This document shows positions 27,001-30,000 of a DNA stretch of 62,355 nt, in pieces. The position numbers were made by a program. Numbering within the stretch: position 1 is the stretch's first letter; every line of letters starts with the position of its first letter. Where the stretch lies: IMG/VR virus record IMGVR_UViG_2534682166_000005; one strand, written 5' to 3'. This stretch comes from a virus. Taxonomy: Duplodnaviria > Heunggongvirae > Uroviricota > Caudoviricetes.

Positions 27001-30000
27001 ACAGGCAAATTGCATGGCGCGTCCGGGGCTGATTTCCACATCCCGACCGGCAAAAAGCTCACGATTATCAGCAAGGATACGGATAATATGAACGCACTCC
27101 TCATCATCCTCGTCATATGGCAGCACACAGTCCTCTCCGGCTGACGGTGACAGCGTGGCTTCACGGCGGCACAACAGGGACTGACGGCAGAATGCCACTG
27201 CCGACATGGATAACGCATCCGTCATCATAATGTTCAGCGGACCACTGATATGGCGACGGACATACGGTAAAAAATCAGTCAGTTCCGCCATGCTGTTCAG
27301 TCTCCGCAACACGACGGCGAAATGCCTCACGCACACGGACACGAAATGCATCAGCCGTTTCTTTCGGGTCTTTGTGAATATTCAGCTCTTCTGCCTCACA
27401 CAACGTTGCCAGCCGTGCGGACGTGAGTTTGCTCAAATCCACATCCTGACCACCAACGCTAACCACAAAACTGTTCTCCGCTTCTGCAAGAGCAAGCTGT
27501 TCTCTTTCCTGCGCCTGCTGTGCCTGCCGCAACTGCTCATCCTGTTGTTGCTTTTTGAGCACACCATCAAGCTCTTCATGACGAACCCAGACATCCGGAA
27601 AGGCCAGCAACTGCCAGGCAAGCGCGCTGTCAACATGCACCGGCTCAAGACGCGGGAACAGTGTACGACTCCCGGTAAGGGTATCCTTTTTCACGGGTTT
27701 GGGGCCGATATAGACAACGGCAATTTTCTCGCTCATATAATTCCCCGGATAAAAAAGCCCGAATACCCGGGCCCGAAGGGTTTAAACCGGAACCCCCCAA
27801 CGTAATAAGCAGCAGAAACTTTCAGGTGACCGTTCGAGGCAGAGGTTTAATGGGTACCGTTACCCAGTTCCCCGTAACCTGGTGTGTTGACCGCCCCCAT
27901 GGGACCATATCGGGCAAATTTTCCAAAAACGGCTCGGTTTTAACCATTGGGGACATGCCCCCGGGCCTAATTGCGGAGGGTTGAAGTACCCAGACCGCCC
28001 GTGAAAACAGTTGGCGGTGAGTTATTCCGATTACCAACGGCCAGTAAAGGAAGATAATAAAACCTTCCGCTTCCGCCACCTTTACCGGAAAAACCCCTTC
28101 TGGCAACCGCCTCTTACCGGTCGGTCCCTGATAAACTCGGCCCCCCAGTTACGGGGGCAGGGTTGTCTTTTCCATAAATAATGACCCCCTAAAAAGGCCG
28201 GGGAAAAACCCGGATAGGGGAAAGGAAAAATCAGAGCTTCACTGCGGTATCAACGGCAATAACGCCGTGATCCTGCATCTTGCCGCTCTTCTCGGGGAAA
28301 CGGATTTTTTTCAGACCGTTGATCCAGCTGATTGCTATCTCAGTACGGTTATCCATATCCGTTTTCTTCTCAACCATGTTGAAGTGACCGCCCGCCTTCT
28401 GACCGTAAGCATTTGCCAGCGCCTGAGCCCCCAGTAACATGGCGCGGTCAATATTGGTTGCAGCAGCGACCTCTTTCGTGGTTGCCGTCAGGTTATTCTC
28501 TGATACCAGAACCTTTGACCCCTGATAGAAACGGATCGGCATACCCGCATACTTACGAACCAGGATATTGCGCCACATCGCACATTCACCTTTGAACAGC
28601 GGATGATTAAAACCTTTTGCACGGTTCACGGCACGAACCATCATCTGGTTCCAGTCCTTACCGGACGTCGAGGTGTACCAGTCATTCCACTGACGCGGCG
28701 TGACGTACAGGACGTAATATGGATCTTCTCCGTGAAGTTCATCACCGGACAGACGAACCGGCTGTAACGGATGCGCCATTTCGTCAATGAACAGGGAGAG
28801 ATTGTCCACCAGGCCAATAGAAAAAATATCTGCCGCTTCAATCTGCTCAAAGCTTGTCGCATCACCGCCAAAAAAGTGACGGTCATGTGTCGGAGGCAGT
28901 ACATCGTTGATCATGATTTTTTTGAATTCAGGGTGCTCCGCTGTCGGCAGAATAGTGTCGTCAGCAACAAAATCACCACGAGCTCCAGCAAGATGCACTA
29001 TCGCACACTGGTCCTGCAGGTCATTAAAGTACGTCCCCAGAAGCGTTCTGGCTGAGGATGCCAAGTTAAACTTCGTGCGCTGCTGACTCATACGTCCGCC
29101 TGCATCCACCAGGTGACGTCCCTGATTGATTTTCAGGGAGAAGTCAGCATGGCTGAGATCCTCACCACGACCTTCAACACGCTCATCTCCCATCGTCGGG
29201 CGTTTTGAGAGTTTGTGCATGATGCTGAAGGTCACTTCATCACCGGCCTGTTTGTTAAGGTCTGTGATACGGACAACCGGCGCACCCGCGCTGGTCTGCT
29301 TCGTGCTTTTCTTGTCCGGCGAAACCGCTTTTGGCGCTTCCTGCTGTTCAGTGAGGATATTGACCATCGAGCGGTTGCGGTTGGCAGCGGTAAAAAGCGC
29401 CACCTGATACAGCTTATTCGCCTGGGCTGATGTTACAGTCGTCATTACTTCAGTTCTCCTTCAGTAAGTTACCCGAGCTTCTCCAGAAGCGCGTCTATTT
29501 CAGCATTCGTCATACCGCGCATAATCGCCTCTGCCTCTGAATGAGAAGCGCCAAGTAACCGTTCAAAATTATCACCGGTTCCGACGGAAGCCGTGGTGCC
29601 TAAATCTGACGGGGAAGCAGGTACTGCCTGCTCCTGTTCAGCGGTCTTCACTTTCTCTTCCGCCGTTTTCCGGATATCCGTTTTGTCTGCCTTGTTGTCA
29701 GCAGACGACTCACTGACTTCACCGAAAGCAACCTGCGTACGACGGGCCACTTCAGCGAAACGTTCAGTGAGCGTTTTGTCTTTCCATGCGGGGTCATTCT
29801 GGAGCTTCCCGTCGATGGATACAGCAACCGAGAAGCGATCTGGATCGGACTCCTGCCACGTTTTCAGCACCGGCACGGCATTCATCGCATCAAGAACCGG
29901 TGATAAATCCTCACCACCATGACCTTCTGCCTGCTGTGCTGATTGCTGAACACGGGACTGGAGATAGTTATTTTTACGGATGAGCGAAGCCACCGCGTCA

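Follow-up and report, generated by a model that had tools for sequence, protein, structure and literature searches.

A doublet-rich, 470-nt stretch of an Escherichia coli O104:H4 prophage record is very probably an ungapped blend of two co-resident prophage copies that masks a virion structural gene

Within the 62,355-nt prophage sequence analyzed here in full (the window), positions 27756–28225 are an ungapped, random composition of two templates, the limits of which lie at two indels and the gene of which is intact in both parents. As judged from the sequence comparisons, this 470-nt stretch is very probably an artefact, a per-position blend of two co-resident prophage copies that corresponds to no real DNA molecule.

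The window (positions 1–62355) aligned to NC_018658.1 from 2588147 to 2525795 with 99.3% identity; it starts just inside ynfF and ends at the exact end of the intD integrase CDS. On this alignment it is classed as the complete stx-negative, 933W-like (Sepvirinae-type) prophage of the ynfG/ynfF region of E. coli O104:H4. Below, the O allele denotes the version of the O104:H4 ynfG prophage, and the P allele that of the Stx2 prophage (P13374 type), which is the same as 933W in the stretch. The O104:H4 outbreak lineage has P13374 as its Stx2 prophage. Two places of O104:H4 genomes match this module, with the P-type copy at ∼3.278 Mb of NC_018658.1. Since these genomes hold both copies and the window is the ynfG prophage at 99.3% identity, we infer that both templates were present in the actual source strain. 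The O and P copies are ∼94% identical within the interval, with 28 polymorphic sites in the homologous gapped alignment. The features discussed are as follows.

27275–27736, minus strand: 153-aa gene (phrog_482), intact and purely O-type
27751–27756, unstranded: left dephasing point, an A run (A6 in O and in the window, A5 in P/933W)
27756–28225, unstranded: blended stretch, each position an O or a P base in an ungapped superposition, one base out of phase
27787–28176, minus strand: predicted masked gene of a 129-aa virion structural protein, 390 nt, placed by homologous annotation (27786–28175 in the P register)
28216–28230, unstranded: right rephasing point, O CATGGGGAAAGGAAAAA vs. P CATAGGGAAAGGAAAAAA, O being one base shorter
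28231–29445, minus strand: major capsid gene, 404 aa (Phage_capsid_3 / N4-gp56 type; PF13252, E = 1.5e-88)

Two-template composition of the 27756–28225 stretch

The original prediction had described a doublet-rich, ORF-free stretch of 494 bp between tightly packed genes. The sequence was found as quoted, and the flanking genes (27275–27736 and 28231–29445, both on the minus strand) are packed as described. The fraction of bases equal to the preceding base was 0.441 in the 27737–28230 interval and 0.434 in the 27756–28225 interval, vs. a window average of 0.270. Sliding 470-nt windows elsewhere yielded 0.268 ± 0.024 with a maximum of 0.351 (z = 6.8 for the stretch), and no second place with a comparable doublet level was detected across the 62 kb. 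Homopolymer runs of at least three bases numbered 47, vs. 24 in the homologous 933W interval, and the GC content was 0.54 vs. 0.50 in the flanks. No gene-sized ORF was present in the stretch: the longest among the ORFs listed reached 94 aa, and every frame contained 2–11 stops. Positions 27737–27755 belong to a normal intergenic region and match the O104:H4 prophage at 100% identity; the true extent of the anomaly is 27756–28225 (470 nt), slightly shorter than first proposed.

In a sensitive blastn search against phages, the stretch matched 186 records, each of them along its whole length with only 74.3% identity. No match was obtained by megablast in 5,426 complete E. coli genomes, and an exact 29-mer from the stretch was not found in IMG/VR, GTDB representative genomes or JGI metagenomes; an example of a window-specific 25–30-mer is GGCCCCCCAGTTACGGGGGCAGGGTTGTC.

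The alignment of the stretch to 933W was essentially ungapped. Matches were found at 296 of 475 positions at offset 0 and at 289 of 475 at offset −1, with a background of 119–130 at other offsets. With 933W in its natural register, 182 mismatches were counted, of which 172 repeat the 933W base one position before (94.5%; binomial p = 1e-68); only 45–49 of the mismatches equal the base at offsets −3, −2, +1, +2 or +3. The calls with the 933W reference were divided between the two registers 171 vs. 172, in 173 runs when 172.5 were expected (z = 0.05, runs test). No preferred base emerged: every pair type was divided between its two bases, most unevenly the C-T pairs (C 25, T 16). The choice between templates behaves as a ∼50:50 coin flip at each position, without a deterministic rule.

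With 933W as the only reference, the data pointed to the phase shadow of a single template, i.e., an n−1/n+1 shadow arising from failed primer purification or from polymerase slippage at an A run. The nearly equal matching of 933W at offsets 0 and −1 is consistent with such a shadow, as are the onset at an A run and the 460 (933W) or 462 (O allele) of 470 positions that two registers of one sequence account for. The number of unexplained positions was 10 with 933W in two registers and 8 with the O allele in two registers, and these residual positions vanished when P was placed in phase with O lagging (0 of 470). The swapped pairing, with O in phase and 933W lagging, left 19. The one-template model was dropped once the two-allele model left no residuals. 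Furthermore, rephasing at positions 28216–28230 is not expected of a shadow, and the zones of the window in which O and P are interleaved without a phase shift (see below) need two templates. A single-template origin is therefore very improbable.

The ungapped overlay of O and P assigned the 470 positions as 182 O-only, 167 P-only, 121 both and 0 neither, with 175 runs of O or P over the 349 informative positions. The same overlay accounted for 2101 of the 2101 positions in the 27300–29400 region. When P was shifted by ±1 or ±2, only 306–352 of the 470 positions were accounted for. Where the alleles differ by a SNP, the P base is found in the window at position p, followed by the O base at p+1. 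A simulated coin-flip overlay gave a doublet fraction of 0.423 ± 0.016, vs. 0.434 observed. Under a two-template blend, the in-phase base taken at position i−1 followed by the lagging base at position i would write the same nucleotide twice, so that mixing at a one-base offset would produce both the doublet-rich appearance and the broken reading frame of the 129-aa gene.

A real biological feature, i.e., replacement of the virion gene by a non-coding element or by a pseudogene that had decayed or been hypermutated, would fit the lack of an ORF and the elevated GC content, and both gene decay and a non-coding element of an unusual kind had been among the initial suggestions. The overlay contradicts it: all 470 positions carry the O or the P base, and a third base was found at 0 of them. 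To our knowledge, no mutational process copies the adjacent base at mismatches such as the 94.5% described above. The left flank (27300–27755) matched the prophage of E. coli O104:H4 2011C-3493 at 100% identity, and the stretch is ∼36% diverged; flanks of 100% identity leave no time for such divergence. The stretch was absent from all collections searched (E. coli, IMG/VR, GTDB and JGI), it gave no Rfam match at E ≤ 1, and no tandem repeats were found in it. We consider a pseudogene or non-coding element extremely unlikely.

The masked gene and the two indels

The alignment to related prophages that had been proposed as a check revealed an intact gene filling the interval in 933W, P13374 and the O104:H4 ynfG prophage. 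The counterparts of the masked gene are L0117 of 933W, ORF61 of P13374 and WP_001140435 of O104:H4, intact in all three; compared with them, the window copy is unreadable. Full-length matches to phrog_486 (“virion structural protein”) were obtained with the 129-aa protein of both parental alleles (E = 1e-59 to 4e-61), and no Pfam family or PDB relative was found for this protein by sequence. In all 186 related phage records, the PHROG 486 gene encodes 129 aa and is located between an N4-gp56-type capsid gene and a phrog_482 gene. At this place, translation of the window meets stops in both registers and leaves no intact ORF. When the 129-aa protein was searched against the stretch with tblastn, it matched over its entire length in two frames that are offset by one base (E = 8e-16 and 9e-14), a ghost of the protein at 34–37% identity. 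From these homologies, what truly occupies the interval is predicted to be an intact gene of an ordinary kind, coding for a 129-aa virion structural protein (27787–28176, minus strand).

One alternative of the original prediction, an artefact that hides a structural gene of ∼120–150 aa, is thus borne out by the 129-aa phrog_486 gene. The leading mechanism put forward with it, homopolymer insertion errors, is not; errors of this kind (454, Ion Torrent or nanopore type) would lengthen runs and shift the frame of a real gene. The many short G/C and A runs, those of at least three bases being doubled relative to the homologue (47 vs. 24), and the presence of a hidden gene agree with that idea, but the length is unchanged: the anchors are 498 nt apart in the window as in every reference. 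An ungapped comparison accounts for every base, with 167–182 substitutions rather than insertions. Collapsing the runs failed to restore the ORF, because true single bases are lost where the neighbouring base was written instead. Homopolymer insertion errors are a most improbable source of the stretch.

The onset and the offset of the stretch coincide with the sole two indels between the alleles. At the left edge, where the A run differs in length, the first O-only call is at position 27756 and the first P-only call at position 27762. At the right edge, where 933W and P13374 have an A6 run, P-only calls end at position 28216 and out-of-phase O-only calls at position 28225; the alleles are in phase from position 28231. 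Since the window, O, P and 933W share an anchor-to-anchor distance of 498 nt, with A6 vs. A5 on the left and one base fewer in O on the right, O and P are in phase outside the stretch and one base off inside it. The proposed blend would use exactly this arrangement: the additional A at the left edge would put the two templates one base out of phase, and the missing base at the right edge would bring them back.

Mixed zones and P-type blocks elsewhere in the window

Across the whole window, a BLAST-based mapping of the differences from the O104 ynfG prophage gave 294 P calls and 4 others. In a four-way alignment of positions 25900–31300, there were 0 differences from the O104 prophage other than P alleles. 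Interleaving of O and P without a phase shift was observed at positions 26279–26576, 27010–27110, 31546–31810 and 34251–34603. The first of these zones contains ∼32 P vs. 31 O calls and the second ∼17 vs. 10, with switches down to 2 nt apart; they fall within a DUF6682-family gene and a 207-aa gene. The O and P copies differ by ∼21% in the 26279–26576 zone, and the best match of the 26000–27755 region in an E. coli genome was only 97.0% identical. The 26279–26576 and 27010–27110 zones are the same artefact as the stretch, invisible without a reference.

The other two mixed zones (31546–31810 and 34251–34603), together with isolated P calls, lie in the portal, terminase and lysis region. Isolated P-allele sites were found at positions 25726, 38089–38130, 39683–39728 and 41478, and at position 38128 an A run is longer by one inserted base. 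Clean blocks of the P13374 allele cover positions 28387–29852, 31147–31543 and 31816–32059, in the capsid/scaffold and portal genes. Within the capsid gene, the window changes from O-type (last O call at position 28261) to P-type (from position 28387). Around the capsid gene, the coarse O-P-O mosaic had no counterpart among the complete E. coli genomes, the best identity being 99.6%. These clean blocks could be a misassembly or a real gene conversion.

Natural recombination, gene conversion or patchy repair of heteroduplexes between the co-resident prophages might also generate a fine-scale mosaic. Both parents occur in one genome, and blocks such as 28387–29852 resemble conversion tracts. Recombination acts on homologously paired DNA and is for this reason limited in the stretch to shuffling the 28 allele SNPs; the ∼140 additional out-of-register substitutions are beyond its reach. 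Moreover, 167–182 positions of the stretch differ from either parent, and the mean run is ∼2 informative positions. The parent switches every 1–2 informative positions, 2 nt apart in the in-phase zones, which is far below tract length. With the O-P-O mosaic also missing from the complete E. coli genomes, recombination as the origin of the stretch has a very slight probability, and any biological origin, taken together, is very improbable at best. It is likewise highly improbable that the stretch is real in the source DNA, through extremely frequent template switching with a one-base slip between the two co-resident copies or through deliberate or synthetic construction. If it were, an unknown process would be writing a per-nucleotide mosaic of paralogues and inactivating a virion gene.

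Other features were observed in the window. A 635-aa tail-fibre ORF (24174–26081, minus strand) carries long collagen-like G-X-Y repeats (GPKGDxGPxG...) and has the same length as the O104 tail fibre WP_000117962. A direct repeat of ∼60 nt (50356–50415 vs. 50447–50505, ∼91 nt spacing, 98% identity) and an internal repeat of ∼310 nt (3283–3591 vs. 43358–43666, 72–88% identity) are also present in the reference prophage. The latter is inverted at its best-matching core, and its left copy corresponds to a DUF551-domain gene of the reference annotation.

Technical routes and consequences for the record

The explanation favoured here is that two paralogous templates of one bacterium, the ynfG prophage and the Stx2 prophage (P13374 type), were overlaid without gaps. 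A caller would then have taken one of the two signals per position, effectively at random and at about 50:50.

In a collapsed repeat, or a chimeric consensus across paralogues, the consensus alternates between two repeat copies. The window is similar in that its other zones alternate site by site or take entire blocks from the wrong copy. Assemblers of the ordinary column-vote or graph type work with gapped alignments or real k-mers, and unlike the stretch, their product would be mixed at the 28 SNPs only, without a one-base register blend. Gapped aligners, column-vote assemblers and de Bruijn graphs were for this reason set aside as a poor fit. Cross-mapping of short reads was also rejected: such reads would take the homologous register, the switches are 2 nt apart, and a divergence of ∼21% is too high.

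Two routes to an ungapped overlay were considered. In the first, to which we would give an about even chance, both copies would have been present in a PCR product or template mix that was sequenced directly (Sanger-type), yielding superimposed traces. The traces would be anchored at one primer, fall out of phase at the first indel and return to phase at the second, and of the routes considered such a physical superposition fits best. In the second, which is possible and somewhat less probable, two reads or contigs would have been merged computationally without gaps, or ambiguity codes resolved at random.

The SNPs nearest to the stretch are all O-type, at positions 27731, 27701 and further on the left and at positions 28246 and 28261 on the right. 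A single mixed Sanger read would be expected to mix the two alleles also at the SNPs that lie just beyond the indels. Such a read requires a start at ∼27750 and O calls on the right-hand side by chance (p = 0.25), or an end near position 28230. The O-type calls immediately outside the stretch lean slightly towards the computational route. The 50:50 randomness (z = 0.05) is cleaner than the usual base calling driven by peak height and likewise leans towards a computational tie-break or the resolution of ambiguity codes.

The pattern of the stretch is the one described for superimposed traces from templates that differ by an indel (Dmitriev and Rakitov, 2008, PLoS Comput Biol 4:e1000113; PMC2429969). 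In that description, traces that share a common anchor are clean up to an indel and out of phase thereafter; every call is one of two superposed bases, and both sequences can be recovered by deconvolution, as in the stretch. The present case differs from the one described there in that the templates belong to a haploid genome, as paralogous copies of a prophage and not as diploid alleles, a second, compensating indel restores the phase, and the finished sequence shows the blend as plain bases.

These data provide (i) a simple flag, the doublet excess, that reveals one-base out-of-phase blends without a reference; and (ii) a reference-based test, in which every position of an ungapped overlay is that of parent A or parent B. 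The finding matters solely as quality control, since the consensus of the record is contaminated by a paralogous prophage in several places. A virion gene is erased at positions 27787–28176, and Stx2-prophage substitutions, in blocks or site by site, are also found in several other genes, among them the DUF6682-family, 207-aa, capsid and portal genes. Annotation, SNP typing, phylogeny and recombination analysis of O104:H4-type prophages based on this record would be misled, the expected false signals being pseudogenisation, mosaicism and inflated divergence.
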